From positions 3,152 to 67,151 of the forward strand of contig RFFU01000078.1 of assembly GCA_003697085.1 (NCBI GenBank): 64,000 nt of DNA, read 5' to 3'. This document shows positions 29,686 to 64,000 of this stretch, one piece after another. How positions within the stretch are numbered: the first letter of the stretch is position 1; each line of letters starts with the position of its first letter. Origin of the DNA: Candidatus Hydrogenedentota bacterium (lineage in GTDB: Bacteria; UBA8481; J006). The translations under genes and the position numbers were made by a program. The notes beneath the pieces were generated by a model. It was not told where the DNA came from and made no database searches. It saw nothing but the letters and a program-made list of their open reading frames with translations.

Positions 29686-30561
29686 GTGCCGGAAGCCTCA
29701 TTGCTCGATTTCTCCGTTTTTAATCCGCGGCGGCTCGACGAAGCGCTGTCTCTGTTGGCCGAAGAGGAGAACGTCGTTCCTCTGGCCGGCGGAACGGATC
29801 TGATGGTGACGTTGGAGACCGGTAATTTATCTCCGTGTCGTTTTCTCAATCTGATGGGAATCGCGGAATTTCAGGAGCCTTTCTCGTGGTGCGATGGAAA
29901 ATTACGGATGTCGCCGCTTTGTTCTTACCGCGATACCCGTATCGACAAGGATGTTGCGACTCGATACCCGTTGTTGGTTCGAGCGGCCCGCGAAGTGGGA
30001 GTCCTGGCGATCCAGTCCCGCGGAACTTGGGCTGGAAATATCGTGAATGCAAGTCCGGCTGCGGATGGTGTACCGGTTCTTATGGTCTATGATGCGGAGG
30101 TTGAGTTGCGAAGCACGAGCGGAACGCGAACGGTTCCCCTTTGTGATTTCTACCGTGGTTACAAGGAGATGGACCGTGCTTCCGACGAACTCGTGACCGG
30201 CATAATACTGCCCCCGCCACCGGAGGATCGAATCGAATACTTCCGAAAGGTCGCCCCACGCCGGTTGCAAGCGATCACGAAGGTTCTCCTTACCGGATAT
30301 CTTCTCCGCTCGGACGACCGAATAGAAGACTGCCGGATCGTTCTTGGAAGCGTGGCGCCGTTTACGTTGCGCGCGCGTGAGACGGAATCGATTTTGCGCG
30401 GAAGTGTTCTTGATTCGGAAACGATCAAAGCGGCGCGAGCCGCGCTTCAAGGGGAGATTTCCCCCATTGATGACATTCGTTCCACGGCGATGTACCGTCG
30501 GAATGTCGCGGAACGTCTCCTGGACGAATTCCTCCTTTCTGCTTCGCCCGAATCCCATTGA
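29686..30561 (+). CDS. FAD-binding (CoxM/XdhB-like) medium subunit
   Basis: It contains VVPLAGGTDLMV. The protein is 291 aa, and its GTG start lies 3 nt after the small-subunit stop. Confidence 0.88.
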   Translation: MPEASLLDFSVFNPRRLDEALSLLAEEENVVPLAGGTDLMVTLETGNLSPCRFLNLMGIAEFQEPFSWCDGKLRMSPLCSYRDTRIDKDVATRYPLLVRAAREVGVLAIQSRGTWAGNIVNASPAADGVPVLMVYDAEVELRSTSGTRTVPLCDFYRGYKEMDRASDELVTGIILPPPPEDRIEYFRKVAPRRLQAITKVLLTGYLLRSDDRIEDCRIVLGSVAPFTLRARETESILRGSVLDSETIKAARAALQGEISPIDDIRSTAMYRRNVAERLLDEFLLSASPESH

Positions 30562-31607
30562 AGGACACCTCGCTTTCGAACTCCTCCGCCGAAGAAGCCG
30601 TCGGCCCCTTTCTGAAGGCGGGAATCATCGGGCTCGGGGTCGGAGAACGGCACATCGCCGGGTACGAGGCCCATCCTCAATGTCGGGTTACGGTCCTTTG
30701 CGACCTCAATGAAGAGGCCCTCCGTTCCTGCGGGAAACGCCATCCGGGAAGACGTCTCACAACGCGGCCGGAAGACGTTCTCGACGATCCCTCCCTCGAT
30801 ATCATTTCCGTCGCGGGTTACGATGATTCCCATGCGGCGCAGGTTATTGCTGCATTGGAGAGGGGCAAACATGTCTTTGTGGAAAAGCCGCTTTGTCTGA
30901 GCCGCGAGGAAGCGGATTCCATCCGGAAGGCTTGGAAAAGATCCGGAAAACGATTTTCATCAAATCTGATTCTCAGGCTCTCCCCGCGATTCCAAGCGCT
31001 ACGCGAGAGAATCGCATCAGGCCTCTTCGGAAATCTCTATTATGTGGAGGGAGATTACAACTACGGAAGAATCTGGAAGATCACGGAGGGGTGGAGGGGG
31101 AGGCTGCCCTTCTATTCCGTTGTTTACGGTGGCGGAGTTCATATCGTTGATCTTCTCGTCTTCCTTACGGGCCGGAAGATCCGATCGGTCGTTGCGCGTG
31201 GCAACAAGATCTGTACGGCAAACACGAGATTTCGATACAACGACTTCAATGTGGCTCTTTTGGATTTCGAAGATGGAATGATCGGAAAGGTCTCTTCCAA
31301 TTTCGGTTGTGTTCTTCCGCACTTCCATCAGATTCAGATCTACGGAACGAAACGAACCTTTCTTCAGACCGCGGCGGGCACGCGAGAATACGATTCACGG
31401 GAGCCGAATGATTCCGGTCATGAAGTCTCGGAGGCGTATCCGGGAATCGAGAAGGGGGATTTGCTTTACAATTTCGTCGAGGCCGTGTTGAATAGAGCCC
31501 CTTTATTGATTTCCGAAGAGGAAGTCTTTGACGCAATGGCTGTCTGTTTTGCGATCGAGGAATCGGCCCGTGAGGGCAAGGCGGTTGAGATTTCCGCTAT
31601 TCGTTGA
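30558..31607 (+). CDS. Gfo/Idh/MocA-family NAD(P)-dependent oxidoreductase
   Basis: Motifs seen: KAGIIGLGVGERHIAGY and VFVEKPL (the EKP motif). The TTG start overlaps the FAD-subunit stop (TTGA). Confidence 0.85.
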   Translation: MKDTSLSNSSAEEAVGPFLKAGIIGLGVGERHIAGYEAHPQCRVTVLCDLNEEALRSCGKRHPGRRLTTRPEDVLDDPSLDIISVAGYDDSHAAQVIAALERGKHVFVEKPLCLSREEADSIRKAWKRSGKRFSSNLILRLSPRFQALRERIASGLFGNLYYVEGDYNYGRIWKITEGWRGRLPFYSVVYGGGVHIVDLLVFLTGRKIRSVVARGNKICTANTRFRYNDFNVALLDFEDGMIGKVSSNFGCVLPHFHQIQIYGTKRTFLQTAAGTREYDSREPNDSGHEVSEAYPGIEKGDLLYNFVEAVLNRAPLLISEEEVFDAMAVCFAIEESAREGKAVEISAIR

Positions 31608-31630
31608 TTGAAAGGAATCGCGACGGGAAA

Positions 31631-32653
31631 ATGGAAGAGTTCGAGAAAAAGAGGATCGCCCTGATCGGCGGTGCGGGATTCATAGGGCACCATTTGGCCT
31701 TGGCTCTGAAAGAAGAAGGGGCGGAGGTGTTTGTTTTGGACAGCCTCCAGGTCAATAATATTCTCGCCTTCACCGTCACCGATGATATTCCCAACAAGGA
31801 CCTCTACCTTTCGATTCTGAATTCCCGGCTCGACCTCCTCAGGGAAGCGGGCATTCCTCTCTATATTCAGGACGCTCGGGACTATCACACACTTTCCAAA
31901 CTTCTCGGTGCCATCGATCCTGATACCATCATTCATCTCGCGGCCGTCGCTCACGCAGGCAAATCAAACAAAGATCCTTACAGTACATTCGACCACAGCC
32001 TGAGAACGTTGGAAAATGCACTGGATTTCGCTCGAGGCGAAAACATGAATGTTTCGCATTTCATCTATTTCTCCTCGAGTATGGTTTATGGACATTTTCC
32101 GTCGGGCGAGGTTACGGAGGAAACACCGTGCAACCCCTTGGGCATTTACGGGGCCCTGAAATTCGCGGGAGAAAAGATCGTGATCGCATACAATCAGGTG
32201 TTCGGCTTGCCATACACAATCGTTCGTCCATCGGCTCTGTATGGGGAACGTTGCGTCAGCCGACGCGTGGGACAAATCTTCATCGAAAACGCGATGAGAG
32301 GACTCGATATCTCGGTAAACGGGGATGGAAATGACAGATTGGACTTCACGTATATCGGAGATCTCGTGGAAGGAATTAAATGCGTGCTCCGTTCCCCCGC
32401 CTCGCGGAACGAAATCTTCAATCTCACTTATGGCGAATCGCGGACGATCGGACAGATGGCGAACATCTTGCGGAAACACTTTCCGAATGTCGAGATCCGA
32501 TACCTTCCGAAGGATGAACTGACGCCGGACAGGGGGACGCTGAGCGTCGAAAAAGCGCGAAAATTGATCGGTTACGAACCCAAGTATCCGTTGGAGCGGG
32601 GATTCCCGGAATACATTCGTTGGTACCGCTCGATTTGGCCTGAAAGAAAATAA
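31631..32653 (+). CDS. NAD-dependent epimerase/dehydratase (extended SDR, nucleotide-sugar type)
   Basis: Motifs seen: IALIGGAGFIGHHLA and YGALKFAGE (YxxxK). An alternative TTG start at 31604 would overlap the upstream stop. Confidence 0.88.
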   Translation: MEEFEKKRIALIGGAGFIGHHLALALKEEGAEVFVLDSLQVNNILAFTVTDDIPNKDLYLSILNSRLDLLREAGIPLYIQDARDYHTLSKLLGAIDPDTIIHLAAVAHAGKSNKDPYSTFDHSLRTLENALDFARGENMNVSHFIYFSSSMVYGHFPSGEVTEETPCNPLGIYGALKFAGEKIVIAYNQVFGLPYTIVRPSALYGERCVSRRVGQIFIENAMRGLDISVNGDGNDRLDFTYIGDLVEGIKCVLRSPASRNEIFNLTYGESRTIGQMANILRKHFPNVEIRYLPKDELTPDRGTLSVEKARKLIGYEPKYPLERGFPEYIRWYRSIWPERK

Positions 32654-32787
32654 GACCGGCGACTTTTTCACCAGAGGATGTGTTCCGACGGGAGATTTTT
32701 GTCACCTCCGAAGTTGCGAACGAAACCGCCGGCTTTTTCGAAAGGACAATGTTTTGTGGAAAAGAAAGAGTTTAGGGAGGAAAAAAA

Positions 32788-34596
32788 ATGAGAGCGATTC
32801 TGGGTATTCAAGAGGCTCACGATGCTTCAGCCGCCTTGATGGTGGACGGCCGTATCGTGGCGGCGGCTCAGGAGGAACGTTTCTCGGGCTTAAAAGGCGA
32901 CTATGGCTTTCCCCGCCAAGCCGTCGCGTATTGCTTGAGAGAAGCGGGGATCGATTCCTCGGACCTCGATGAGGTCGCGCTGGCTTCTCATTCTTGGAAC
33001 CCCGTCCTCACGAAGATCAAGAGGAACGCGAACTTTTCGGTCGAGGATTGGGTCAAGGAACAACACGACTACTGGTATCCCACGAAATACGAAAAGAAAA
33101 ATGTCGTCTACTACGATCTCTGGAAAGATCGGAAGGATTTTCGCTTCGACGATTTTTATCCGATGGAGGGCATCCTCCAGGGATATATGGACCCGGTGGA
33201 AATGGAGAAAATGAAGGAACTGAGACTTCAAACCGTGGCGGACTACCTTCGCCTGCCTCGGGAGCGTGTTCGTACGGTCACACACGAGGATTGCCATCGG
33301 TTCTACGCTTATTTTGGAAGCCCACTTCGTGGAGAAGTCCTTTCGTTGACCTCGGAGGGCATCGGAGATTATTCGAACGGCACGGTCGGTATCTTTTCCG
33401 AAAAGGGATTCCGCGAATTGGCCCACACGAAAGACAATCACATCGGACACATTTATCAATATGTAACGCTTCTTTTGGGAATGAAGCCCGCGCAACACGA
33501 GTACAAGGTTATGGGCTTGGCGCCGTACGCCAACGCGAGGGAACTCGAAAGGAGTTATCGCGTTTTCGAACGAGTGTTGAAGGTGGATGGATTGAAGATT
33601 GTCTTCGATCAGGAACCGCCCGACCTCTATTTTCACTTCCGAAAAGCGCTTGAAGGCCATCGTTTCGATGGAATCGCGGGAGCGGCGCAGAAGATGGTGG
33701 AGGAACTCCTTTGCGCTTGGGTGAGGAATTGTATTGCGGAAACCGGGTTGCACCGCGTAATCTTCTCCGGAGGGGTCGCCCAAAACATCAAGGCCGATAT
33801 GAAGATCGCTCAGATGGATGAAGTGGAGGACATCTTTGTCTGTCCCGCCGCCGGCGATACCTCTCTTCCTCTCGGGGCGTGCTACTTGGCGATGTGGGAA
33901 TTTTTAAAGAAGGAAGGGTTGAGCGCGGACCGGCTCCTCCCCCTCGACACGGCCTATCTCGGTCCCCAATTTACCGACGAAGAAACCCGAAGGGTCATCG
34001 AGGAGACGAAAGCGGCGGAACGGTACGATGTTCGGGAGCATGTCGCCCCGGCCGAAGTGGCCCGTTTGCTGGCGGAGGGGAAAATCATCGCGCGGTGCGC
34101 CGGTCGCATGGAATTCGGCCTGCGTGCCCTTGGAAATCGCTCGATTCTTGCCGACCCCCGCCATCCGCAAACCGTGCGAAAGATCAATGAAGCGATCAAG
34201 TTTCGGGATTTTTGGATGCCGTTTACTCCCTCGATTTTGGCGGAGCGGGAGAGCGAATACATCGTGAATCCGAAAGGTTTGAAGGCCCCTTTTATGACGA
34301 TGGCCTTTGATTCCACCGCCCGAGCACGACGGGAGCTTCCGGCGGCGTTGCATCCCGCCGATGAAACCGCCCGACCGCAAAGCCTCGAAAAACGACACAA
34401 TCCGATCTACCACGCGATTATTTCGGAATTCGAGAAGATAACCGGAGTCGGAGGGATCTTGAATACGAGTTTCAATTTGCACGGATATCCGATCGTGCTC
34501 GGCCCGAAGGAAGCCCTCTTCACCTTGGACAATTCCGAACTCGACGGCGTCCTTCTCGGAGACATCTTGGTCAGCCGGCGCGCTCCGATGTCCTGA
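32788..34596 (+). CDS. NodU/CmcH-family carbamoyltransferase
   Basis: The N-terminus is MRAILGIQEAHDASAALMVDGRIVAAAQEERFSGLK. The protein is 602 aa, and GGGAGG precedes the ATG. Confidence 0.9.
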   Translation: MRAILGIQEAHDASAALMVDGRIVAAAQEERFSGLKGDYGFPRQAVAYCLREAGIDSSDLDEVALASHSWNPVLTKIKRNANFSVEDWVKEQHDYWYPTKYEKKNVVYYDLWKDRKDFRFDDFYPMEGILQGYMDPVEMEKMKELRLQTVADYLRLPRERVRTVTHEDCHRFYAYFGSPLRGEVLSLTSEGIGDYSNGTVGIFSEKGFRELAHTKDNHIGHIYQYVTLLLGMKPAQHEYKVMGLAPYANARELERSYRVFERVLKVDGLKIVFDQEPPDLYFHFRKALEGHRFDGIAGAAQKMVEELLCAWVRNCIAETGLHRVIFSGGVAQNIKADMKIAQMDEVEDIFVCPAAGDTSLPLGACYLAMWEFLKKEGLSADRLLPLDTAYLGPQFTDEETRRVIEETKAAERYDVREHVAPAEVARLLAEGKIIARCAGRMEFGLRALGNRSILADPRHPQTVRKINEAIKFRDFWMPFTPSILAERESEYIVNPKGLKAPFMTMAFDSTARARRELPAALHPADETARPQSLEKRHNPIYHAIISEFEKITGVGGILNTSFNLHGYPIVLGPKEALFTLDNSELDGVLLGDILVSRRAPMS

Positions 34597-49760: not shown

Positions 49761-50421
49761 CTTCGTTACACAAGGGAGCGGGATTTTGGAATCCGAGCCG
49801 GCGGCGTGTGTCCCTCAATTTTGCGACCTGTTCCGGGTTCAAGGCGTGCGGACCTCCCAGCGGCATTGAAGCGAGAAGAATTCGGGCGGCATGATCGAGC
49901 GATTCCATCTTGTAAAGCGCTTCGAAAAGGTCCGCGCCGACGGTGAGCGCGCCATGATTCTCGAGCAAAACGGCGTCGGCACCGCGAATGTATGGTTCGA
50001 TCGATTCCGGAACCTCTTCCGTCGAGGGTGTGGCGTAAGGCGCAAGCGGAATCGCTCCCAACGCAACAATGATCTCGGGTATGACACAACCGGTAATCCC
50101 GCGACCCGCCACGGCGAACGCCGTCGCATACGGCGGATGCGCGTGACAAATCGCCGCGACATCGGGACGAAGCCGGTACGTTGTCAGATGCATTCGGATC
50201 TCGGAAGAAGGCCGCTTTTTTCGTTCCCCGATTATTGTCCCGTCGAGGCGCATTTCCACGATGTCGCCGTCCTTCAAGAAGCCCTTTGCCACCCCGGACA
50301 CCGTGGCCAGGATTCTTCCGTTCTTCATTCGGATCGAAAGGTTGCCGTCGGTTCCGGAAACGAGTCCCCGTTGCCAAAGGCGTCTTCCCACTTCGATGAT
50401 GTCGCGGCGTGTCATAACCAT
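49747..50421 (-). CDS. Class II aldolase/adducin-family protein (FucA/MtnB-like)
   Basis: Motifs seen: SGTDGNLSIR and ICHAHPPYATAF. An alternative ATG at 50415 overlaps the manC stop as ATGA. Confidence 0.85.
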   Translation of the reverse strand: MVMTRRDIIEVGRRLWQRGLVSGTDGNLSIRMKNGRILATVSGVAKGFLKDGDIVEMRLDGTIIGERKKRPSSEIRMHLTTYRLRPDVAAICHAHPPYATAFAVAGRGITGCVIPEIIVALGAIPLAPYATPSTEEVPESIEPYIRGADAVLLENHGALTVGADLFEALYKMESLDHAARILLASMPLGGPHALNPEQVAKLRDTRRRLGFQNPAPLCNEDEPY

Positions 50422-51470
50422 TTTTCTTCTCCCCTCTCGCGCAACTTCTCCAGCACTTCCTTCACCCTCTGTTCCTCACCGCGCTTCATCACAAGGAGAA
50501 TCTCCTCGCGCCGAACGATGACGAGGTCCTCCACACCGATCGTGGCGACAAGCCCCTCGTCGGAATCCAGAACGAGATTTCGCGAATCGATCAGAAGCGT
50601 CGAGAAACCGGAGGAAGCCGTGACGTTGCCGTCCGCGTCCGGATCTCGCACGCGCCTCACCGCTTCCCAATCACCAAGGTCATCCCAGGGAAACATCCCC
50701 CGTACAACGCCCGTCCTTTCGCTCTTCTCCATAATGCCGCGATCCACGGAGATACTCGGGCATTCGGAAAAGCCGTCCAGCGAACCCGTAGTCCGATAAC
50801 GGCGACAAAATTCCGCCCACACGGGAAGATGTTCCTCGAGAAGCCCCTCGTACACCCCCGCACGCACGATGAAGATACCCGCGTTCCACAGAGCACCCTT
50901 GGCAAGGAGCTTCCTAGCCACTTCCTTCGCCGGTTTCTCCACGAACCGTTCGATTCTCCGAACCCGGTCCCTTCCCCCCAAGGGCTCACCGGGAATAATG
51001 TAGCCATATCCGGTCGCGGGTCGGTCGGGTTCCACTCCCAAAGCAAGAATAATTTCCTCGTTGCGGGCCGTTTCAACGGCTTCCGAGACGGCTTCACGAA
51101 AACGTTCCCCGTCCGGAATATGGTGGTCCGCCGGTAGGGCGATGAGGACATCTTCACTCGAAACACCCCGCATTCCAAGAACGATCGCCGGGGCCGTGGA
51201 ACGACCGCAGGGCTCCTCAATAACCTTCAACGTATTTGCCCAACCTGCCGCCGTAATGATCTCCCCGGCTCGGGGGGCGAGATCCGTTCCCGTAATGAGA
51301 ACACCCTTCCCGGCGATCTTCGAAATCCGCTTCCAGGTCTCCTCGAGAAAGGTCTTTCCATCCGGAGCCGAGAGAAACTGTTTCGGTCGCCTTCGCCGGG
51401 ACCATGGCCACAGCCGTTCTCCGCGCCCGCCTGCCAGGATGACCGCTACGATCTCACTCATCGTTCCCAC
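50412..51470 (-). CDS. manC: Mannose-1-phosphate guanylyltransferase
   Basis: It contains AVILAGGRGERLWPWSRRRRPKQFL. The 352-aa length implies no isomerase domain. Confidence 0.88.
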   Translation of the reverse strand: MGTMSEIVAVILAGGRGERLWPWSRRRRPKQFLSAPDGKTFLEETWKRISKIAGKGVLITGTDLAPRAGEIITAAGWANTLKVIEEPCGRSTAPAIVLGMRGVSSEDVLIALPADHHIPDGERFREAVSEAVETARNEEIILALGVEPDRPATGYGYIIPGEPLGGRDRVRRIERFVEKPAKEVARKLLAKGALWNAGIFIVRAGVYEGLLEEHLPVWAEFCRRYRTTGSLDGFSECPSISVDRGIMEKSERTGVVRGMFPWDDLGDWEAVRRVRDPDADGNVTASSGFSTLLIDSRNLVLDSDEGLVATIGVEDLVIVRREEILLVMKRGEEQRVKEVLEKLRERGEEKWL

Positions 51471-51981
51471 TCTTCCGATCGTGAAAGAATTTCAATGGAA
51501 AGAGACCCTCTCTCTCCTGTCCGCCTTTTTATCTTAGGCATTATTGACTCCTCCCGAAACAATAACCTTTTCTTCGCTCCAAAAAAAGGACGGAACAGGA
51601 CGTCCAGCCAAAAATCGCTCCCATTGTTCCGGAGTAGGGTTCGACTCGAATTGTGGCGTTATGGCGCCCTCTAACTCAAGAAGGCATTGTCCTCCACAAA
51701 ATGTTTTTCAGAAGGACCTCGATGACGGGCTGTCAAAACGGAAGGATAAAAAACCGAAGATTTTCCGAGGCGCTTTCCCGTGTCCTCTTCCTTTCTTCCC
51801 ACGTTCTGAGCGGCTGTTTTAAGCTAACCCAATAGTAATCAGCCGTTTTACCCCAAACCCGTAGAGAGGAGAGATCACACTCTCGTTCAAGAGGGAGAAA
51901 ACTGAAAGCCGCCACGCTCTTCCCACGAAACGTTTAACGTCACCGCATAAAATTTCCTGCAATGATGTCAGTCCAATCTTC

Positions 51982-53733
51982 TCAACAATCACGCGATATT
52001 TGCCGGCCGGTTTGTTCCTCCTCGAGACGCCGACGGACTTGCTCCACTTCGCGATAGTATTCGTTGTCCAAGTCGACGCCCTTCTGCGCCATAAGTGCAT
52101 AGAGAATCCTATCAAATCCCCAGCCGACGCACCCGGAACAGCGCCGAACATCGTTCGGAGCGGAAAGTTCGAACTCGAACCGCGAATAGAATACTTGTCC
52201 ATGGTTGTTAACGGAAACCGCCGCGATGCGTTTTCCGAGATGTGGTATGGTTAATCGAAACTCCATTTTCGATTCTTCCAGTAATTGGGCCGATTGCTTG
52301 ATCTTGGAATCCTCACCAAAAAACGGGTCGGCCGCGGTATAGATCCCAAAATCGAGATCGAGGATATCCCGAAACCACAACCGAGTTTTCTCCAGAATTT
52401 CTTCCAGTCGTTCCTTGCAGAAAGCGGCATCACCGACGACAACGATTTCCCGCATCCAGAAATTGCGAAGCCGATCGAGAATATCACCCTCGCTCTGTTC
52501 ATTTCGAAAACAATTCGAAGCCGAAGTAAAAATCAAACCATTATGAGGAACCCTTTTTTTCGCCAAAGAGCTAAATATGTGGTAGCATACTGTTGGACTC
52601 GCTAGACCTCTGAAATGGCTTTCGGGAAGCACGGATTGCACCGTAAGGGCTTGGTGTTTAAAGGAATTGAGATACTGGCTTCGTGCGGCATTGGTTTGGT
52701 CGAGAATCGCCGGAACCTTTACCTCTTTCGCTCCAAGTTCTTTTGCCATCTGAAGAATAAAAAAATCGAGAGTAGAGAAGAGTCGCGTCACCTTCGAGCC
52801 ATAGACCACCAACCCATCTCCCACCGGCCGGATTTCATCGTATTCCCGGAGAAGCCGTGGAAAATCCGATGTCTTCTTGACGGTCCCGACGTTTTCGTAT
52901 TTGACACGCGAACGCGCCGTTCGAAGCCATTTTCTCTGCTCCCTCGGCCGCGATAAAAAGGAGATCAGATAAAAGCGATCTTCTTTCAGTTTCTCGCCTA
53001 TGACGCGATCTATATCTCGCGCTCGGAAGAGCACCAATGGCGCTCCATGAAACGTCGTTCTGCGGGCCAAATCGCGGCGGACGAGTTCCTCTTCCAAATC
53101 CTGCCAGCTGTCATCTATGTCCAGTTCCCGATATCGAACGTAGTAACGGCTTTTGACTCGAAATTCCTCCGTACCGTCCTTGATCGGTCCCCAGAAATCC
53201 TTGTAATAACGATAGGGCACGCCATATTTTTCTTCCGAAGCATAGACGCACGTGGCCCCTTTTTGGATGGGTATCCCAAACATCAAGTAGAGAAAGTCGT
53301 GTTCGAACATCTTAGCGAAAAAGGACTTCGGTCCAAAACACTCGTAACTATCGATTCGCAACAATTCATCCGCGGCCGGACCCAAGCCCGCATAGGAGAA
53401 GATCGGATGGCGCGACCGCTTTACTCCCGGATAGCGACGAAAATAGTCGGTAAGCGCTCCGACCGTGGAGGGGGTCTCCGCGACATCATAAAGTTCGCCG
53501 GAACACGCCGAATATGTGAAGGTCGGCATCAATAACGTTCCGGCTCTTCCCACCGCAGCGATGAGCGTCTCAGTATAGACCCTGAACAGCGCCTCAACCC
53601 CCTCTTTCGCGACCAAAGGGCGTAAATCCTTGGGCACTCCGAAAGCGGAAGCATCGCTGTGCACCGCAACGACGTCTCCTTCTTTCAACCCCAAGCTTCT
53701 TAAAACGTCCAGAAGTTCTTCATATACCGTCAT
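51982..53733 (-). CDS. Fusion protein: N-terminal AAC(3)-family (Antibiotic_NAT-like) N-acyltransferase domain plus C-terminal truncated class-II aaRS-like domain resembling amino acid:[carrier protein] ligases
   Basis: N-terminal half: LRSLGLKEGDVVAVHSDASAFG, GTLLMPTFTYS, TPSTVGALTDYFRRYPGVKRSRHP. After a basic linker at about aa 256-300, the C-terminal half shows DGLVVYGSKVTRLFSTLD...VKVPAILD...SQYLNSFKHQ, class II motif 2 CFRNE...RLRNFWMREIVVVG, and motif 3 GCVGWGFDRILYAL. There is no tRNA-binding arm. Confidence 0.7.
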   Translation of the reverse strand: MTVYEELLDVLRSLGLKEGDVVAVHSDASAFGVPKDLRPLVAKEGVEALFRVYTETLIAAVGRAGTLLMPTFTYSACSGELYDVAETPSTVGALTDYFRRYPGVKRSRHPIFSYAGLGPAADELLRIDSYECFGPKSFFAKMFEHDFLYLMFGIPIQKGATCVYASEEKYGVPYRYYKDFWGPIKDGTEEFRVKSRYYVRYRELDIDDSWQDLEEELVRRDLARRTTFHGAPLVLFRARDIDRVIGEKLKEDRFYLISFLSRPREQRKWLRTARSRVKYENVGTVKKTSDFPRLLREYDEIRPVGDGLVVYGSKVTRLFSTLDFFILQMAKELGAKEVKVPAILDQTNAARSQYLNSFKHQALTVQSVLPESHFRGLASPTVCYHIFSSLAKKRVPHNGLIFTSASNCFRNEQSEGDILDRLRNFWMREIVVVGDAAFCKERLEEILEKTRLWFRDILDLDFGIYTAADPFFGEDSKIKQSAQLLEESKMEFRLTIPHLGKRIAAVSVNNHGQVFYSRFEFELSAPNDVRRCSGCVGWGFDRILYALMAQKGVDLDNEYYREVEQVRRRLEEEQTGRQISRDC

Positions 53734-53742
53734 ATTCTCGAT

Positions 53743-54000
53743 TCAGCCCGTTGCTCTCTCCACATAATCGACGAGGTCTGAAAATGTTCCTATCTCCCTG
53801 AACTCCTCCGGTCCGATTTCAATATCAAAACGCTCCTCAATCGCCATTAAATAGGTTAAATGCTTGAAAGAATCCCACCCTGGTAAATTTCTGATCTCCG
53901 TCGAAAGCGAATATTTCTCGATATCCGAAAGGTGGAATGGTAAAGTCGCCAAAACGTTTTTCAACTCCGCGAATATGTCGCTCGAATTCTGTTTCGTCAT
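53743..54000 (-). CDS. Phosphopantetheine-attachment carrier protein (DltC-like ACP)
   Basis: An 85-aa protein. LPGWDSFKHLTYLMAIEERFDIEI places the Ser in a DSF context, as in D-alanyl carrier proteins. The ATG overlaps the upstream stop (ATGA). Confidence 0.8.
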   Translation of the reverse strand: MTKQNSSDIFAELKNVLATLPFHLSDIEKYSLSTEIRNLPGWDSFKHLTYLMAIEERFDIEIGPEEFREIGTFSDLVDYVERATG

Positions 54001-54437
54001 TGTCCCTCCCTCTTCCGACCCGTGATCTCTATTAAACCAACATGCGGATGGAAAAAGTGAGCCGCCCAGAAACCCGGCGTCACTTGCGACGCAAATGGTT
54101 CCGTTACGAGAAAGAACCCCTGCTTCTGAAGCCGCTCCTTATCTCGCGAAAAATCCGTTACCGCGAAGCAAATATGATACAGTTGGCTCTCTCGTGTTTC
54201 AATAAGATTCTCGACCGGATTCCCTTTCTCCGCCGGTTCGACAAGTTCAATCTTGTGGTCAGTCCAGGGTGCTCCAAGATATGTGATGAAAACCTTTTGT
54301 TCTGGCTCAAGCTTCTTGTAAGTCCTTATTTCAGGATAAAAAATCGAAAAAAACCTTATCGCGGCGTCGGTAGAACGCACCGCATAAGCAATATGATCGA
54401 GTTGGCCCCCGGGAAAAATATTTGAAACATCACCCAT
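53997..54437 (-). CDS. VOC-family protein (glyoxalase/methylmalonyl-CoA-epimerase-like)
   Basis: From ORF 53997..54512, trimmed to MGDVSNIFPGGQLDHIAYAV. A second module shows LYHICFAV. This is the paired beta-alpha-beta-beta-beta pattern. Confidence 0.8.
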   Translation of the reverse strand: MGDVSNIFPGGQLDHIAYAVRSTDAAIRFFSIFYPEIRTYKKLEPEQKVFITYLGAPWTDHKIELVEPAEKGNPVENLIETRESQLYHICFAVTDFSRDKERLQKQGFFLVTEPFASQVTPGFWAAHFFHPHVGLIEITGRKREGQ

Positions 54438-57384: not shown

Positions 57385-59049
57385 TCATCCAAAGACGACC
57401 CAGCGCCAAAGGTGCGGCACCGAGAGGAAAATCCAGTCCCACAGAAGTTGGACGCCGAGAAGAAGTGAAAAGATTCGTTCTCCACGCCTCGTTCCGCAAA
57501 ACACCTTCACTTTCACGGCCCAAAAAGGAATCCACAAGGGAAGAACGGGAATGAGGTATCTCAGATGCGGCCAGGAATCGAAGGTGTGGGGATAGGTGAT
57601 AATCACCGCAAGGTAGAGCAGGGATATCCAGAGGAAGGAGCGCACCAGGCGCCGCTCCTCATTCCGGCATCGTGATTCCCCCGCTATCCTCCGGCGTCGC
57701 CAGGGAAACAAGAGAACGAGCCAGGGGGGAAGATGGACGAAGAGCCCGATCTCGACGGAAAAGAGGTGGGCGTAGATCGCGCGGACCCATCGAGTCGGCT
57801 CCCAGAAATGCACTCCCTTGAGGCCGTAGGCGTGCGGGAGATGGTGGGGAAAGGAAAAACCAAATATCGCCGCCAAGCCCAAGAACGACGGAACCGCCCC
57901 GAGACCGAGTCCGGCCAGAACCCGGCGGCGCTTCCGAGAGAACCAGAAGAACGCAATCAGAAACGGCAATCCCACGAGCCCGAGGCGTTCGTGAAAGATT
58001 GGTGTGACCGTTGCCAGAAAGCTGCCTGGAAAGGGATCGGCATTGGTCCGAATAATTCGTTCGAGTGCGAACATCAAGGCGGGGACAATCGCGAAAAAAA
58101 GGCCTTCCGGTTGGGTATTCGTCGTGTAATAGAGAAAGGGGGTCATGGAACCGACCGCGATGAATACGGGGAGCGAAAAAAGATCCAATTCAACAAGCAT
58201 TTTCGTCAGGAAGAAGATTCCGATTGCGTAGGAAAACAGCGTGGGAAGATAGGCGATCCACCATCGGACCATCGGCACGGGAACGTGGGAGGCAACCGCG
58301 ACGAAGGGAGCCAACAGCAGGGGGTATCCGAAGGGACGTTTCGACCAAAGATAAATCGGCGTGCCTCTTTCGAGGTTGAAGGTGTACCACGTGAACGAAG
58401 ACGGGATCTTGCCGAAGTAGAATTCTGTCATTTTTCCTTCCCTTGTCACTCCATCGACACGCGGAACGCCGTGGTCGGCGATTCCCAGCGCTGCCGCCAC
58501 ATAATCTCCCTCGTCGGATTCGTTCGGCGGCTGCGTCGAGACCGCGAACGAAAGGAGAAAGACACCGAAAAAGAGGGCGGAGATAAGGCGCTTGGCGTCA
58601 GGCCTTGTTGTTTCTCGAAGGGTATGCTTCATAAGAAGCGCGGTGGCTGTTCCCGTTCCGAAAATCCACGCGGCGGAGAGGAAATGCTTGGCTGGTCCCA
58701 GCGGCGTCCCCGTCATCCCGTACCGTCCCTCGGGAAAAAGAAAAATCCCCCAAGGAAGAAGCACCGCCCCCCACGGCAGCCATGCTTCGATCATATTTTC
58801 CGTCTCCGCCTTGAAAAGCCACGCGAGCAAGGCGGTCCAAAGGATTGAGAGGCAGAAGCCGCCGGACGCGAGAATGGTTCCGGCGCGGATCATTATCTTC
58901 GTGGGAACCGCCGTGGGATGAGAACAGACGTGGCCCGCGGCAAGGGGAAGATAGAGAGCAAGCAAGAGTCCGGCCGTCAACCCCGGCAGGCCGCGATTAA
59001 GAAGGCGTTTCAAACTATTCTTTCCTGTCTCGCTGTTATCGAGAAACAT
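57385..59049 (-). CDS. GT-C-type (PMT_2/ArnT-like) membrane glycosyltransferase
   Basis: From ORF 57385..59364, trimmed to MFLDNSETGKNSLKRLL because the longer version overlaps a credible divergent gene. A first-loop motif, NESDEGDYVAAALGIADHG, is present. The protein is polytopic. Confidence 0.65.
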   Translation of the reverse strand: MFLDNSETGKNSLKRLLNRGLPGLTAGLLLALYLPLAAGHVCSHPTAVPTKIMIRAGTILASGGFCLSILWTALLAWLFKAETENMIEAWLPWGAVLLPWGIFLFPEGRYGMTGTPLGPAKHFLSAAWIFGTGTATALLMKHTLRETTRPDAKRLISALFFGVFLLSFAVSTQPPNESDEGDYVAAALGIADHGVPRVDGVTREGKMTEFYFGKIPSSFTWYTFNLERGTPIYLWSKRPFGYPLLLAPFVAVASHVPVPMVRWWIAYLPTLFSYAIGIFFLTKMLVELDLFSLPVFIAVGSMTPFLYYTTNTQPEGLFFAIVPALMFALERIIRTNADPFPGSFLATVTPIFHERLGLVGLPFLIAFFWFSRKRRRVLAGLGLGAVPSFLGLAAIFGFSFPHHLPHAYGLKGVHFWEPTRWVRAIYAHLFSVEIGLFVHLPPWLVLLFPWRRRRIAGESRCRNEERRLVRSFLWISLLYLAVIITYPHTFDSWPHLRYLIPVLPLWIPFWAVKVKVFCGTRRGERIFSLLLGVQLLWDWIFLSVPHLWRWVVFG

Positions 59050-59217
59050 CTTTGTATCCGGAGTGTGGGCTGCCGGACTTCGAAACTCGATGGAGTCTGC
59101 CGAAATCTCTCGAAAAATTTTTTCCCCCCGAACCTCTTTGCTTGATCCCGGTTTTCGTTTCTCCCCTTCGGAATCTTTCCCTTTGGAAATTTTTTTTGGC
59201 AAAATAGGGATTCTGAA

Positions 59218-59592
59218 ATGGAACAGAGGACTCCAAAAGAGGGGCGCGTTCCCGTGGCCGTTTACGATGGCCGCTGCGGGCTCTGCAGGAACTTCGCGGC
59301 ATTGTTGCGGAAGCAGATTCCACTCGAGGATCTCGATGTTGTCCCCTGTGGGTCGCCTCTCCAAAAGAAGCTGGCGCCCGAGGCGAACGAAGCCTGCCGA
59401 ACATCATTCGTGATTGTTGAGCCCGACGGTCGCGTTCTCTCGGGAGGAGACGCGGCGGCGCGCGCCGTGGCGATGGCACCCCGCCTGAAGCCGTTCCGTT
59501 GGATGATCGACAGCCGCGCGGGACGAAGCGTCGCCCGGCGCGTCTATCGGGGAACGCAATGGTTGCGCCGCCGACGGCGCTGTTGTGAATAA
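59218..59592 (+). CDS. DCC-family thiol-disulfide oxidoreductase (DUF393)
   Basis: It contains VAVYDGRCGLCRNFAALLRK. Confidence 0.75.
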   Translation: MEQRTPKEGRVPVAVYDGRCGLCRNFAALLRKQIPLEDLDVVPCGSPLQKKLAPEANEACRTSFVIVEPDGRVLSGGDAAARAVAMAPRLKPFRWMIDSRAGRSVARRVYRGTQWLRRRRRCCE

Positions 59593-61262: not shown

Positions 61263-62035
61263 CGGGGATCCCCGGCGCGGCTCGTCCGAAATTTCTCGAC
61301 GAGGCTCTTTACCTCGCCGAATCGCCGGACATGGCGGAGAAAAGCGCCACCGATCAGAACGGCGTCGGCCCGCTGCGGCAGATCCTCCGGGCTTTCATAG
61401 CCTGACTCGGCGACAAGAAGGTAGCCGGCAGGAACATCCCGCGCCAGTTCCCGCGCTCGATTTGCATCGGTTTCGTACGAAGGACTCGAAAGATCGCGAT
61501 TGTTGATCCCGACGATCTCGGTGTTTCGTGGAAGGCGTTTCAGGTCCTCGGCCGAATGGATCTCGACGAGAACATCGAGTTGCGCGTCGCGTGCCTCGTC
61601 CAAGAGGGCTTCTAGGACCGCGTCCTCGAGAAAAGCGACGATGACGAGAACGGCGTCGGCTCCGAGCACTACGGATTCGCGGATCTGTTCGGGCGCGAGG
61701 AGAAAATCCTTGCGGAGAACGGGCAGCGACGTCTTCGCCGCCAGGTCTTCGAATTCCTCCGGGCTCATTCCAAAATGTCGATCCGAGAGGATCGAAAGGG
61801 CGTCGACTCCGGCCGCCTCGTATGCCTCCAACACCGGCCTCGGCTCGACCTCAAAGGAACCGGTGGACGGAGAGGAACGTTTGATCTCGGCGATGATGGA
61901 AAGACCGTCACGTGCCAACGCCTTCCGAAAGGAATATCGCCCCCGCCTCCGAGAACGCTTTTCCCACGGGCGCTCCTTCCGAAGACGTTCCACCTCCGCC
62001 TGTTTGGCCTCGAGGATTGTCTCGACGGAAATCAT
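61259..62035 (-). CDS. trpC: Indole-3-glycerol-phosphate synthase
   Basis: Motifs seen: IAEIKRSSPSTG, VLRKDFLL and VGINNRDL. Confidence 0.92.
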   Translation of the reverse strand: MISVETILEAKQAEVERLRKERPWEKRSRRRGRYSFRKALARDGLSIIAEIKRSSPSTGSFEVEPRPVLEAYEAAGVDALSILSDRHFGMSPEEFEDLAAKTSLPVLRKDFLLAPEQIRESVVLGADAVLVIVAFLEDAVLEALLDEARDAQLDVLVEIHSAEDLKRLPRNTEIVGINNRDLSSPSYETDANRARELARDVPAGYLLVAESGYESPEDLPQRADAVLIGGAFLRHVRRFGEVKSLVEKFRTSRAGDPR

Positions 62036-63393
62036 CTTTCCTCCATCTGTACCAGCGTTTTTGTCACGCCGCGGATGAGAACATCAGAGTATTTCCAAAG
62101 GCAGCCAAATGCCAGCGCAACAAGACTCGTTCCCGCAAAGGATACGACGTAATGAAGAGACGGCGGGGTTATCGCCGGCAGAAAATCCGGATAACCTTCG
62201 AGGAGAATTCCGAAGGAAAAGAGGGCCCACGTCACTTTCATAGTGCCAAGTCCGTAGTTGAAGAGCACCGGTGGCAGCGACAGGAAGACGATGCTGTCGA
62301 GGAGAAGAATCGCCGTTGTTGCCATTGAAGAAAAACGGGGAAAGGGGAGAAAGGGAGCCGGTTGCAGGAGAAAAAGCACGAGCAGGACAAAGGTCGCCGA
62401 AGCAACAGCCACAACGAACATCACCATCACCTGAATAACGGGAAATCCCCATCGCAGATATTGTCGCAGGATGAAGAGGGAGGCGAGGACGAGCGTGCCG
62501 CGGGAGAAGAGACGAAGAGTGGGGATAATCGTGGGATTCGCGAAGACCGGACCGAAGACTTGGTTTACGGAACCGGCCAGAAAAGAGGCCAGCAAAAGCA
62601 CGAGGAACATCCGCATACTTCGGGAGTCGAAGTGATTCAGGAGAAGAATAAGGAGAAAGACGGTAAGAAGAGAGACTCCGGAGAGGGCAATCCGAGCCAA
62701 GGTCAAGAAATACGGTATCGGAAGAAACGGAGGCACCGCGCTGAAGAGCACAACGAGAAAGAGGCCCCGCCGGACGAAGACCCGCACCTCCGAATAGGTA
62801 AATTCGTGCTCGGGATCCGACCGAAGGTGAAGCCCCGCCAGAAAGAAGAGTTCGAAGGCGGAAAGAGCCAAGGTGGGAAGCGCGAGGGAGAGCGCGGTTT
62901 TTTGTTCGAGAAAGGCAAAAAGGAGAAGGAAAAAGAGGCTTGGCGCGGTTCCTAGAACGATGACCCGCGTTCGGACGATGACGTCGATATCGCGTGACCG
63001 TCCCGGCGCGCCTGCAAGTATGAGCGGAACGAGGAACCCGAAGAATCCGGCAAGAAAGAGTCCGTAACGAGGAAAGAGGGCGAAGACGGAAAGGAGATAC
63101 CACGAATTCCTCCACCGGCCCGTTCGGAAATAAGAGGCCAGAGCGACACAGAAAGAGAGCCCCAAACCCAAGGGAAGAGCGATAACCGGTGAAAACCAGG
63201 AGGGAAGCAATGATTCCGTAAATCGTGAAAAAGCGGCGGAAAAAAGAAGGAGGATTTTGAAGAGAAGGAAGGTCCAGGTTTGAGCCAGAAGGACGGCGCG
63301 AGTCCGGCGGGCGGTCGTTCCGTGATGGCGCAGAATTCCGAAAAGGTAGATCGTGACGGCGAGATTGACGATGAGAAGAAGAACGAGATCCAT
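62032..63393 (-). CDS. Hypothetical polytopic membrane protein (12 or more TM helices)
   Basis: From ORF 62032..63612, trimmed to MDLVLLLIVNLAVTIYLFG at 63393 (TGATG overlap with the upstream gene). Its stop overlaps the trpC start. I recognise no family. Confidence 0.55.
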   Translation of the reverse strand: MDLVLLLIVNLAVTIYLFGILRHHGTTARRTRAVLLAQTWTFLLFKILLLFSAAFSRFTESLLPSWFSPVIALPLGLGLSFCVALASYFRTGRWRNSWYLLSVFALFPRYGLFLAGFFGFLVPLILAGAPGRSRDIDVIVRTRVIVLGTAPSLFFLLLFAFLEQKTALSLALPTLALSAFELFFLAGLHLRSDPEHEFTYSEVRVFVRRGLFLVVLFSAVPPFLPIPYFLTLARIALSGVSLLTVFLLILLLNHFDSRSMRMFLVLLLASFLAGSVNQVFGPVFANPTIIPTLRLFSRGTLVLASLFILRQYLRWGFPVIQVMVMFVVAVASATFVLLVLFLLQPAPFLPFPRFSSMATTAILLLDSIVFLSLPPVLFNYGLGTMKVTWALFSFGILLEGYPDFLPAITPPSLHYVVSFAGTSLVALAFGCLWKYSDVLIRGVTKTLVQMEER

Positions 63394-64000
63394 CACACCG
63401 CCTCCTTCCGCCGTCTTTCGGTCTTCCCCACGAACGGGACCAACACTGCAAGAAGAGTTCCCGCTGCAAGGAGCTGTGCGCCTTTTTCGCTTTGCGTCCA
63501 CATTTCCAAACCCGCAAGCGGAAAAGAAAAGAGAAAGATTTGTCTTATTAGGGAGCGGGGAACCCGTCCGAGGAAGAGCCCCAGACTGACAAACGTAAGA
63601 GGCAGCGTCCACCAGGGCGAAAGAGGGATGAGGTCCAGAAAGAGGAAGAGAAGAAGGGGGAGAAGGAGACGAAGGTCCTTCTTGTCAGGCAATTCCGTCG
63701 AGAAGAAGAAAGCGAGAGAGAGAGCCGAGGCGGCCGCAAAGGAGTAGGAGGGTTGACCTGCTCCACGCGCGAGGAAAAGACCGGAAACGACGGCCGGTAG
63801 AAGCGTCAAAGCGGCCGCGTACCGGACCTTTTCATACGTCATTGCCAAGGCTGCGGGGGGAAAGGAGGCCGTGAGAAGAAGAAGACCTTCCCGCTCCCGT
63901 TCCGGCTGAAAGAAGAAAATGAGAAAGAGCAGAGCGGCGAGGGCGACACCGTTGCGCGCCCCTCCGCGGAAGCCCGACACCGCGAGGGAAAAGACGAGGC
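63393..64000 (-). CDS. Hypothetical membrane protein; the 5' end may lie beyond the window
   Basis: The frame is still open at position 64000 (LVFSLA before the GTG at 63980). It contains several hydrophobic helices. Confidence 0.45.
   Translation of the reverse strand, partial: LVFSLAVSGFRGGARNGVALAALLFLIFFFQPEREREGLLLLTASFPPAALAMTYEKVRYAAALTLLPAVVSGLFLARGAGQPSYSFAAASALSLAFFFSTELPDKKDLRLLLPLLLFLFLDLIPLSPWWTLPLTFVSLGLFLGRVPRSLIRQIFLFSFPLAGLEMWTQSEKGAQLLAAGTLLAVLVPFVGKTERRRKEAV

Follow-up and report, generated by a model that had tools for sequence, protein, structure and literature searches.

Amino acid:carrier-protein (aa:CP) ligases are offshoots of aminoacyl-tRNA synthetases (aaRS), which charge carrier proteins (CP) instead of tRNA. 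The closest described members are Bll0957 from Bradyrhizobium, a Gly:CP ligase (Protein Data Bank (PDB) entries 3mey and 4h2s), and Atu2573, which we take to be specific for Ala. To our knowledge, the fate of the aminoacyl-CP produced by rhizobial ligases has never been established and their physiological products are undefined. The Antibiotic_NAT family, which comprises the AAC(3) aminoglycoside acetyltransferases, is characterized by the catalytic motif TxΦHΦAE (with Φ being a hydrophobic residue), where the His, made more basic by the Glu, deprotonates the amine of the substrate and the Thr stabilizes the oxyanion. Here we describe an open reading frame (ORF) from a Candidatus Hydrogenedentota bacterium, in which both families are joined in a single polypeptide. 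It is located on a stretch of 64,000 nucleotides (GenBank assembly GCA_003697085.1, contig RFFU01000078.1, positions 3,152 to 67,151), which we refer to as the window. With a probability of about 0.6, we propose that the fusion acts as a bifunctional enzyme in a module for carrier-protein-dependent aminoacyl transfer, consisting of a VOC-fold protein, a carrier protein and the NAT-ligase, which would serve in the N-aminoacylation of amino sugars.

Architecture of the fusion protein

The fusion and its parts are encoded at the following positions of the window:

51982–53733, minus strand: fusion ORF with an ATG start, 583 aa and a stop codon
52948–53733, minus strand: N-terminal Antibiotic_NAT (AAC(3)-fold) domain, residues 1–262, assigned by PF02522, AlphaFold model and Foldseek
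52864–52947, minus strand: junction, residues 263–290, basic N-terminal tail of the ligase
52063–52863, minus strand: C-terminal aa:CP-ligase domain (class II aaRS core), residues about 291–557, assigned by Pfam, NCBIfam, PDB sequence, profile and Foldseek matches

The N-terminal half contains the motifs VHSDASAFG (residues 24–32 of the fusion protein), GTLLMPTFTYS (65–75) and RSRHP (106–110) and the C-terminal half TVCYH (381–385), FRNE (409–412), RLRNFWMREIVVVG (421–434), CSGC (532–535) and GCVGWGFDR (534–542), all of them at the residue numbers that had been given in a preliminary description of this DNA. In Pfam, residues 51–243 match Antibiotic_NAT (PF02522) with an E-value of 5.6e-32 and 111.6 bits, compared to a gathering cutoff of 25, and residues 400–550 match the class II core tRNA-synt_2b with 5.8e-9. 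The best NCBIfam match of the C-terminal half is the model of amino acid--[acyl-carrier-protein] ligase (9e-35), followed by models of methanogen-type seryl-tRNA synthetase (SerRS), and the N-terminal half matches AAC(3) models, with all NCBIfam scores being far under the curated cutoffs. Sequence matches in the PDB include Bll0957 (4e-19), AAC(3)-IVa (4e-12) and the SerRS from M. barkeri (4e-4). Judged from these comparisons, both domain assignments are far beyond chance and both domains belong to known families. An AlphaFold2 model built from an alignment of 75 sequences predicts both domains with confidence, as reflected in a mean predicted local distance difference test (pLDDT) score of 89.6, which reaches about 97 in the N-terminal domain and falls below 50 only at residues 274–287 and in the last three residues. 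With a predicted template modelling (pTM) score of 0.59, the relative orientation of the two domains in this model is unreliable.

The ligase domain shows the following features:

52699–52728, minus strand: class II motif 1 region KEVKVPAILD, with a nearly invariant P341 (homologue alignment)
52585–52587, minus strand: Cys383, candidate zinc ligand 1, aligned with chain residue Cys151 (Cys131) of Bll0957
52498–52509, minus strand: motif 2 FRNE with invariant R410 and E412 (alignment)
52447–52449, minus strand: Glu429 in MREIV, candidate zinc ligand 2, aligned with chain residue Glu196 (Glu176) of Bll0957
52261–52329, minus strand: DPFFG motif and next helix, residues 469–491, the segment that differs between two Bll0957 sequences
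52108–52134, minus strand: motif 3 GCVGWGFDR, holding Cys535 (candidate zinc ligand 3) and the invariant R542 (alignment)

In an alignment of 26 ligase homologues, P380, C383, R410, E412, R421, G434, A467, D469, F471, F472, K489, E491, S507, N509, C535, G539 and R542 are invariant and E429 is kept in at least 90% of the sequences. The profile of the ligase family matches Bll0957 with 2.6e-62 over chain residues 32–330 of 346, a type-2 SerRS (3w3s) with 8e-43 and M. barkeri SerRS with 1e-26. In Foldseek, the domain superimposes on the complex of Bll0957 with its carrier protein (4h2s) with a template modelling (TM) score of 0.79 when normalized on the target and thus covers nearly the whole of Bll0957, compared to about half of SerRS with a target-normalized score of 0.48. 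Motif 2 (FRNE) corresponds to fRrE in Bll0957 and hRyE in M. barkeri SerRS, and the GFDR of motif 3 to GmdR and GleR, respectively. The catalytic arginines of both motifs, R410 and R542, are thus retained, as had been anticipated from the sequence, and the absence of a tRNA-binding arm is borne out by SerRS alignments that begin past the N-terminal domain of these enzymes, with the 262 upstream residues of the fusion adopting the AAC(3) fold instead. The C-terminal domain is thus an aa:CP-ligase-type class II core that is closest to Bll0957.

A zinc site formed by a Cys, a Glu and a Cys had been proposed for the same domain, with either Cys532 or Cys535 in third place. Its ligands, which we take to be Cys131, Glu176 and Cys279 in Bll0957 and Cys306, Glu355 and Cys461 in M. 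barkeri SerRS, coincide with C383, E429 and C535 of the fusion, which align with C151, E196 and C299 of the Bll0957 chain and with corresponding C/E/C residues in 2cim and 3w3s; C532 is not conserved. When a tag of 20 residues is allowed for, the assumed numbers for Bll0957 match these three residues of the deposited chain exactly. The zinc ion of SerRS has been reviewed as being bound by Cys and Glu residues. The segment encompassing residues 469–491, with its invariant D469, F471, F472, K489 and E491, is the most conserved motif of the ligase family, and it is solely in the helix following DPFFG that wild-type Bll0957 differs from the other deposited sequence, that of a variant engineered for a foreign carrier protein. 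Among other members of the short ligase subfamily, P0049, P0062 and P0091 carry an additional, unrelated C-terminal domain of about 220 aa, whose three copies are 28–38% identical to one another and for which we found neither a Pfam match nor BLAST similarity to the GNAT-like gene of locus L009. In L029 (4363–5178), a ligase homologue is broken into two ORFs in different frames, reflecting either a frameshift or a pseudogene.

The N-terminal domain resembles AAC(3)-IVa (6mn5, TM score 0.78), FrbF (3sma, 0.74–0.77) and also BA2930 and YokD in Foldseek searches. Its catalytic motif is located as follows:

53233–53253, minus strand: catalytic-motif region T161-C-V-Y164-A-S-E167, with the Thr and Glu of the consensus TxΦHΦAE and a Tyr at the position of its His

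The hallmarks of AAC(3) proteins that had been recognized in the sequence are thus present, as are Thr161 and Glu167, except for the catalytic His, whose position is occupied by Tyr164. In an alignment of 118 homologues of the domain obtained from an exhaustive phmmer search, P70, G92 and R106 are invariant, G65 is invariant or nearly so and the block YR-x-x-K-x-F (174–180) is almost invariant, with Y174, R175, K178 and F180, and likewise T161, being nearly so. The column of the catalytic His contains 101 His, 16 Tyr and one Ile. Sequences of the Tyr type are the nearest relatives of the domain in the window (P0008–P0026), several of which also replace H25 and E167, and H109 is invariant within their clade. 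The change from His to Tyr thus looks like a clade-wide exchange of catalytic residues and not like random decay, as far as can be judged from the alignment. In L022 (619–1401), the position of the His is occupied by a Leu, and in L015, L026, L027 and L030 the pair consists of Tyr and either Leu or Met, with the acidic partner being absent.

Stand-alone homologues of the transferase stop at about residue 263 and stand-alone ligases start at about residues 265–268 in the numbering of the fusion, and nothing has therefore been inserted at the junction. The basic stretch, which had been described as a linker between the domains (10 Lys or Arg and 2 Asp or Glu in the 29 residues 261–289), instead is the N-terminal tail of the ligase itself, of which only residues 274–287 are predicted to be disordered. 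At the junction (52927–52944, minus strand), a Shine-Dalgarno-like AGGGAG precedes by 8 nt an ATG in the +2 frame, which opens a peptide of only 31 aa; no homology was found in this frame downstream of the ATG, and the arrangement may be a relic of a former ligase start or may have arisen by chance. Among 1.84 billion representative proteins, only two contain both domains at full length, namely the protein of the window and P0002 from the metagenome-assembled genome (MAG) of an uncultured archaeon (locus L001), which are 40% identical. The domains of P0002 share 48–52% identity with stand-alone proteins and 44% and 37% with the respective domains of the window, and since each is closer to stand-alone proteins, the two fusions appear to have arisen independently. 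A protein search of a plasmid collection returned single-domain relatives and no fusion. The ORF of the window is found unchanged in a second assembly (L011) of the sequencing run SRR7905022, with 100% DNA identity over 5465 bp, making an assembly artefact unlikely.

The gene cassette in the window and in relatives

In the window, the fusion is preceded by two genes of the same operon:

53997–54437, minus strand: first gene of the operon, encoding a 146-aa VOC-fold (Glyoxalase_4) protein that resembles methylmalonyl-CoA epimerase (Pfam, NCBIfam, PDB, orthologues)
53743–54000, minus strand: carrier protein of 85 aa, acidic with a pI of 4.5 (Pfam PP-binding)
53869–53871, minus strand: predicted phosphopantetheine site Ser44 in GWDSF (motif)

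The VOC protein matches Glyoxalase_4 in Pfam (2.4e-11), and its best NCBIfam match is methylmalonyl-CoA epimerase (MCE; 2.7e-11, below the model cutoff). In the PDB, it matches the glyoxalase-like protein 2qh0 (5e-10), with which it shares conserved His/Glu/His/Glu positions, and the MCE 1jc4 (2e-3). The stop codon of its gene overlaps with the start of the carrier-protein gene (ATGA), whose own stop is separated by 9 nt from the start of the fusion. The carrier protein scores just over the Pfam cutoff for PP-binding (21.3 compared to 20.8) with weak matches to acyl carrier protein (ACP) models of NCBIfam, and its motif WDS[FML] is common to the carrier proteins of L001, L004, L009, L012 and L013.

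Related loci were gathered via the ligase or a single domain and subsequently scanned with hidden Markov models for the four parts VOC, carrier protein, NAT and ligase, so that the adjacency of NAT and ligase was not built in by the search; a genome scan of relatives used an alignment of four sequences. In this way, we found a recurrent unfused module with the order [phosphopantetheinyl transferase (PPTase)]-[VOC/methylmalonyl-CoA-epimerase-like]-carrier protein-NAT-ligase-[DUF4910], where brackets denote optional genes, which usually resides inside nonulosonic-acid or amino-sugar clusters. The NAT gene is located directly upstream of the ligase gene in 12 unfused loci (L008, L012, L015, L017, L021–L024, L026–L028 and L030), with gaps or overlaps of a few nt, and the window and L001 contain them as a fusion. 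The ligase gene of L013 is divergent and found beside an ACPS-VOC-CP-NAT arrangement. Altogether, 15 loci carry NAT and aa:CP ligase, a carrier protein is found in most related loci, and a NAT is located upstream in eight of the nine close metagenomic ligase relatives that have upstream sequence. Woesearchaeota, a further archaeon and a member of the Pseudobdellovibrionaceae are among the hosts of these loci.

A VOC gene at the same position is shared by six loci, with the orthologues in L012 (5359–5772) and L013 (2254–2700) being 42–48% identical. Where the upstream region is visible, the presence of this gene tracks the type of the catalytic motif in the NAT, as defined by the residues at positions 164/167:

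Tyr/Glu: window, L012, L013, L021, L023 and L024; VOC in 6/6 loci
Tyr/Leu or Met: L026 and L030; VOC in 0/2 loci
His/Glu: L001 (fused protein P0002); no VOC, PPTase directly upstream of the carrier protein
Leu/Glu: L022; no VOC, PPTase directly upstream of the carrier protein

Frequent neighbours across the related loci are genes of the M28-peptidase-like class DUF4910/DUF2172/HTH_47 (nine loci), DegT aminotransferases (six), PPTases (six) and NeuB-type synthases (five), besides CMP-sugar synthetases, PseG-like genes, PIG-L deacetylases and glycosyltransferases, which defines these loci as clusters for decoration with nonulosonic acids or amino sugars. The DUF4910-class gene, present in L008 (1578–2888), L017, L020, L021, L023, L025, L026, L028 and L030, follows the ligase in eight of these nine loci and is located upstream of the carrier-protein gene in L026. 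Neither the conserved VOC partner nor the glycan context of the relatives had been part of the preliminary description. In a Pseudobdellovibrionaceae MAG (L009, 2781–10582), carrier protein and ligase occur in the absence of a NAT partner together with DegT, a GNAT-like protein, PIG-L, a methyltransferase, a phosphoenolpyruvate mutase-cytidylyltransferase and phosphonopyruvate decarboxylase, in what looks like a cluster for a phosphonate-decorated glycan.

Members of the same transferase family are also found with other enzymes that load carrier proteins. Relatives of the NAT follow FkbH and a carrier protein in the nonulosonic-acid loci L004 and L005 and stand beside an AMP-binding ligase in L002. 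On plasmid pDCAR1 of Solidesulfovibrio carbinolicus (L019, 4254–7825), an adenylation protein of the nonribosomal peptide synthetase (NRPS) type, an ACP and a hypothetical protein are followed by an "AAC(3) family N-acetyltransferase", and a plasmid of Maritalea myrionectae (L018, 7001–9460) encodes an 819-aa fusion of NAT and FkbH (HAD-IIIC) between pseB on one side and DUF4910 and a NeuB-family gene on the other. Further relatives are fused at their N-terminus to PP-binding domains (P0003, P0034) or MaoC dehydratase domains (P0004, P0069) and at their C-terminus to methyltransferases or DUF4910 (the latter in P0046, P0087 and P0098). The strongest argument for a carrier-bound acyl group as the substrate of the transferase is that loaders of four different chemistries have a single transferase family in common. 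A functional link between transferase and carrier protein is strongly supported by the comparison of sequences and gene neighbourhoods, and a large unannotated branch of "aminoglycoside acetyltransferases" likely consists of carrier-protein-dependent biosynthetic acyltransferases. L018 and L019, both being annotated replicons of cultured bacteria, are possible entry points for experiments.

The embedding in glycan clusters holds for the relatives and is not found in the window itself, where the operon is flanked by mostly housekeeping genes, namely divergent ilvH and ilvC, a dapA-like gene, trpC and ftsEX, and where a ManC-like gene (50412–51470), a class II aldolase and yggS are located downstream of the fusion. 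Besides a short ORF on the other strand that lacks support, the gap of 510 nt between the fusion and the ManC-like gene contains only the following element:

51588–51605, minus strand: terminator-like hairpin with T-run, about 380 nt past the stop of the fusion and before the ManC-like gene; a weak candidate, since such sites occur at chance level in the region

Apart from the ManC-like gene, the only sugar-related genes nearby are located at 30.5–34.6 kb, about 18 kb from the cassette, where genes for a GFO/IDH/MocA oxidoreductase, an NAD-dependent sugar epimerase/dehydratase and a NodU/CmcH-type carbamoyltransferase stand in a row (30558–34596, plus strand) and form a possible sugar-modification set. 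No Pfam or NCBIfam match was found for the ORFs at 57385–59364 (minus strand, 659 aa, strongly hydrophobic) and 62032–63612 (minus strand, 526 aa).

Proposed mechanism and alternative interpretations

In the proposed mechanism, the ligase domain would activate a small amino acid with ATP, while holding its α-amine on the zinc site formed by Cys383, Glu429 and Cys535, and would then attach it as a thioester to the phosphopantetheine thiol of the carrier protein of 85 aa whose gene lies just upstream, both steps following from the homology to Bll0957. A small amino acid is expected by analogy with the Gly and Ala specificities of Bll0957 and Atu2573. As suggested by gene context and fusions, the N-terminal domain would use the aminoacyl thioester on the carrier protein as its donor, instead of acetyl-CoA, and pass the aminoacyl group to an acceptor amine, which in the relatives would most likely belong to an amino sugar or a nonulosonic-acid precursor, and it would do so with the pair Tyr164/Glu167 instead of the canonical His/Glu dyad. 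Still speculative is the role of the VOC protein, which probably acts on the tethered thioester and might, in analogy to methylmalonyl-CoA epimerase, which works on the α-carbon of a thioester, catalyse an epimerization from L to D. The fusion itself would have arisen as a rare read-through between genes which otherwise stand next to each other and are coupled in translation.

Amino sugars carrying N-aminoacyl groups are known, as exemplified by the D-alanyl group on legionaminic acid, Leg5Ac7(D-Ala), in E. coli O161, by L-alanyl on glucosamine (GlcN) in Proteus penneri and by N-acetyl-glycyl, -seryl, -threonyl and -alanyl groups on 6-deoxy-amino sugars. For E. coli O161, a putative alanyltransferase, Lea3, has been proposed, and this remains a proposal only. 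In a more ambitious version of our interpretation, which we put forward tentatively and consider rather unlikely, the module would constitute the long-missing downstream pathway of aa:CP ligases, where the carrier protein receives an L-amino acid, for example alanine, a VOC-fold aminoacyl-thioester epimerase of a new kind provides the D-form and the His-less Antibiotic_NAT protein installs an amide on the amine of a nonulosonic acid or amino sugar, as in Leg5Ac7(D-Ala). If so, the fusion of the window would be a "Rosetta stone" for that pathway. DNA-level searches with the cassettes of L012 and L013 found nothing in E. coli genomes, which is uninformative about O161.

Several points weigh against the assignment of the fusion to an aminoacyl-transfer module. 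The His of the catalytic motif, which is a Tyr in the window, has, together with the Glu, been described as completely conserved in all analysed Antibiotic_NAT members including FrbF, YokD and BA2930, the donor of every characterized member is acetyl-CoA, and mutants of T186, H189 or E192 in AAC-VIa keep only 3–5% of the activity. With Tyr164 in place of the general base, the AAC(3) mechanism can therefore not simply be assumed for the fusion. In the ligase, the score of the NCBIfam aa:ACP-ligase model PRK07080 is 120.1 bits at a trusted cutoff of 357, defining the domain, by this measure, as part of a divergent subfamily and no equivalog of the curated model, and the assumed numbering of the zinc ligands is corroborated only by its fall on C, E and C in deposited chains. 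The interdomain geometry of the fusion is not reliably modelled (pTM 0.59), and substrate channelling through the swinging arm, as it had been suggested initially, is an inference. Finally, searches within the 64-kb window with tblastn and cassette-neighbour proteins identified no homologue of NeuB, DegT, DUF4910 or PPTase/ACPS.

The transfer of an aminoacyl group to a sugar has to be weighed against a scheme in which the N-terminal domain would use acetyl-CoA to acetylate the α-amine of the carrier-bound amino acid, leaving the transfer of the resulting N-acetyl-aminoacyl group to another enzyme, such as a DUF4910/M28-like protein. This would agree with the activity of all characterized Antibiotic_NAT enzymes, which put an acetyl group from acetyl-CoA on an amine, with the common occurrence of amino sugars carrying N-acetyl-alanyl, -glycyl, -seryl and -threonyl groups, with the DUF4910/DUF2172 gene that adjoins the module in nine related loci and with the genetic requirement of the homologue class Cj1295 for acyl-pseudaminic acid in C. 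jejuni. We nevertheless consider it doubtful, since the same NAT subfamily is found in cassettes with FkbH (glyceryl-ACP) or AMP-binding proteins, where the tethered acyl group need not bear an amine, as well as directly fused to carrier proteins, and since in the window neither DUF4910 nor another candidate off-loading enzyme is found near the fusion, whose transferase domain has in addition lost the catalytic His. The exchange of this residue for Tyr could also be taken to indicate that the N-terminal domain is a pseudo-enzyme, i.e. a dead AAC(3)-fold module for docking or scaffolding of the carrier protein or the acceptor, with the ligase alone being active, and near relatives which have lost Glu167 (to Leu or Met) and His25, or which in one case contain a Leu in place of the His, would fit such a role. 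It appears improbable in light of the conservation of the Tyr throughout a clade and the strong conservation of the remaining active-site region (P70, G92, R106, T161, Y174, R175, K178 and F180, and H109 in the Tyr clade), of a domain that is predicted to be folded (pLDDT about 97) and of a NAT-ligase gene pair that was kept in at least 14 loci of bacteria and archaea.

More distant from the proposed bifunctional enzyme is the equation of the fusion with either of its parent families. Pfam and fold similarity relate it to both, but the scores of the respective NCBIfam models (64 for AAC_3_IV and 56.7 for AAC_3 at cutoffs of 420 and 270; 79 for PRK00960 and 64 for TIGR00415 at cutoffs of 611 and 490), the restriction of the SerRS alignment to the catalytic core, the missing catalytic His, the absent tRNA-binding domain and an operon with a carrier protein and a VOC protein make a true aminoglycoside-resistance AAC(3) or a true seryl-tRNA synthetase exceedingly unlikely. 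We have thus rejected a genuine methanogen-type SerRS by model cutoffs, lack of a tRNA-binding domain and operon context, and a genuine AAC(3) resistance enzyme by model cutoffs, the lost His and gene context. As a last alternative, the fusion might be an artefact of assembly or sequencing that joins two adjacent genes: in relatives, both genes overlap or are separated by few nt and could be fused by a single indel, the AGGGAG and the out-of-frame ATG are found right at the junction, and the exact ORF is carried by one population only. We consider this to be very unlikely in view of the second and independent assembly of SRR7905022 that is identical over 5.5 kb, the second fusion in the archaeal MAG with its domains being closer to stand-alone proteins, and a frame 0 that stays open across the junction and shows homology before and after it.

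Relation to known systems

In the literature searched, we found no account of the fusion, the VOC-CP-NAT-ligase cassette, its link to nonulosonic acids or the clade with the exchange of His to Tyr. The physical link provided by the fusion and the neighbourhood of the unfused cassette both tie aa:CP ligases to a transferase, whereby their role becomes directly testable, and the residence of the unfused relatives in bacterial and archaeal surface-sugar clusters suggests what the role of this orphan family could be. The module provides a testable hypothesis for the synthesis of N-aminoacyl decorations on the surface sugars of bacteria and archaea. It also affects the annotation of resistance genes, as this branch of "AAC(3)" proteins would contain biosynthetic and not resistance genes, and the replacement of a supposedly universal catalytic His in one NAT clade bears on catalysis in the AAC(3) fold.

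Like Bll0957 and Atu2573, the ligase of the window is a truncated relative of methanogen-type SerRS, which consists of the class II aaRS core, lacks a tRNA-binding domain, is encoded next to a small carrier protein and contains motifs 1–3, an aligned Cys-Glu-Cys triad and DPFFG with a carrier-recognition helix. It differs from both by a low identity of about 25–30%, a score below the NCBIfam trusted cutoff and its fusion to a transferase, and it belongs to a "short" subfamily, which lacks an N-terminal extension of about 80 aa and an insertion of about 20 aa found in other members. With the Antibiotic_NAT proteins AAC(3)-IVa, AAC(3)-VIa, meta-AAC0038, FrbF, YokD and BA2930, the transferase shares the fold (TM scores 0.72–0.78), the motifs HS(D/S), PTFTYS and RSxHP and the Thr and Glu of TxΦHΦAE. 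Unlike in these proteins, the His is replaced by Tyr164, the AAC(3) scores are below cutoff, the gene is accompanied by a carrier protein and a ligase, and the donor would be an acyl- or aminoacyl-carrier protein.

The pairing of a DUF4910-type "aminopeptidase" (Cj1295) with an "N-acetyltransferase" (Cj1296/7) in the pseudaminic-acid locus for flagellin glycans of C. jejuni is reminiscent of the module, although this locus does not contain an aa:CP ligase and the window does not contain DUF4910. The Cj1296/7 protein presumably has an AAC(3) fold. The pairing has been linked to a sugar with an N-acyl (di-O-methylglyceroyl) group. In mycothiol synthesis by MshB and MshC, a PIG-L-type deacetylase bares a sugar amine, to which an aaRS paralogue then attaches an aminoacyl group, and PIG-L genes are also present in the related loci L008 and L009. 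Different from the module, MshC is of class I and the amine is attacked directly from the adenylate, with neither a carrier protein nor a separate transferase being involved. In butirosin synthesis (BtrI/BtrJ/BtrH), an ACP-tethered aminoacyl group is moved to the amine of an aminoglycoside, with an ATP-grasp enzyme as loader and a transferase of unrelated fold. A similar logic of loader, carrier and transferase underlies the addition of glycine to lipid A by AlmEFG of Vibrio. The loaders of this system and of the Dlt pathway (DltA/DltC) for the D-alanylation of teichoic acids are of the ANL family, their transferases are membrane proteins of the MBOAT or LPLAT type and their products are esters, unlike the amides inferred here. 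As in the Dlt pathway, the proposed module would load an amino acid on a dedicated carrier protein, from which a transferase decorates a glycoconjugate of the cell envelope.

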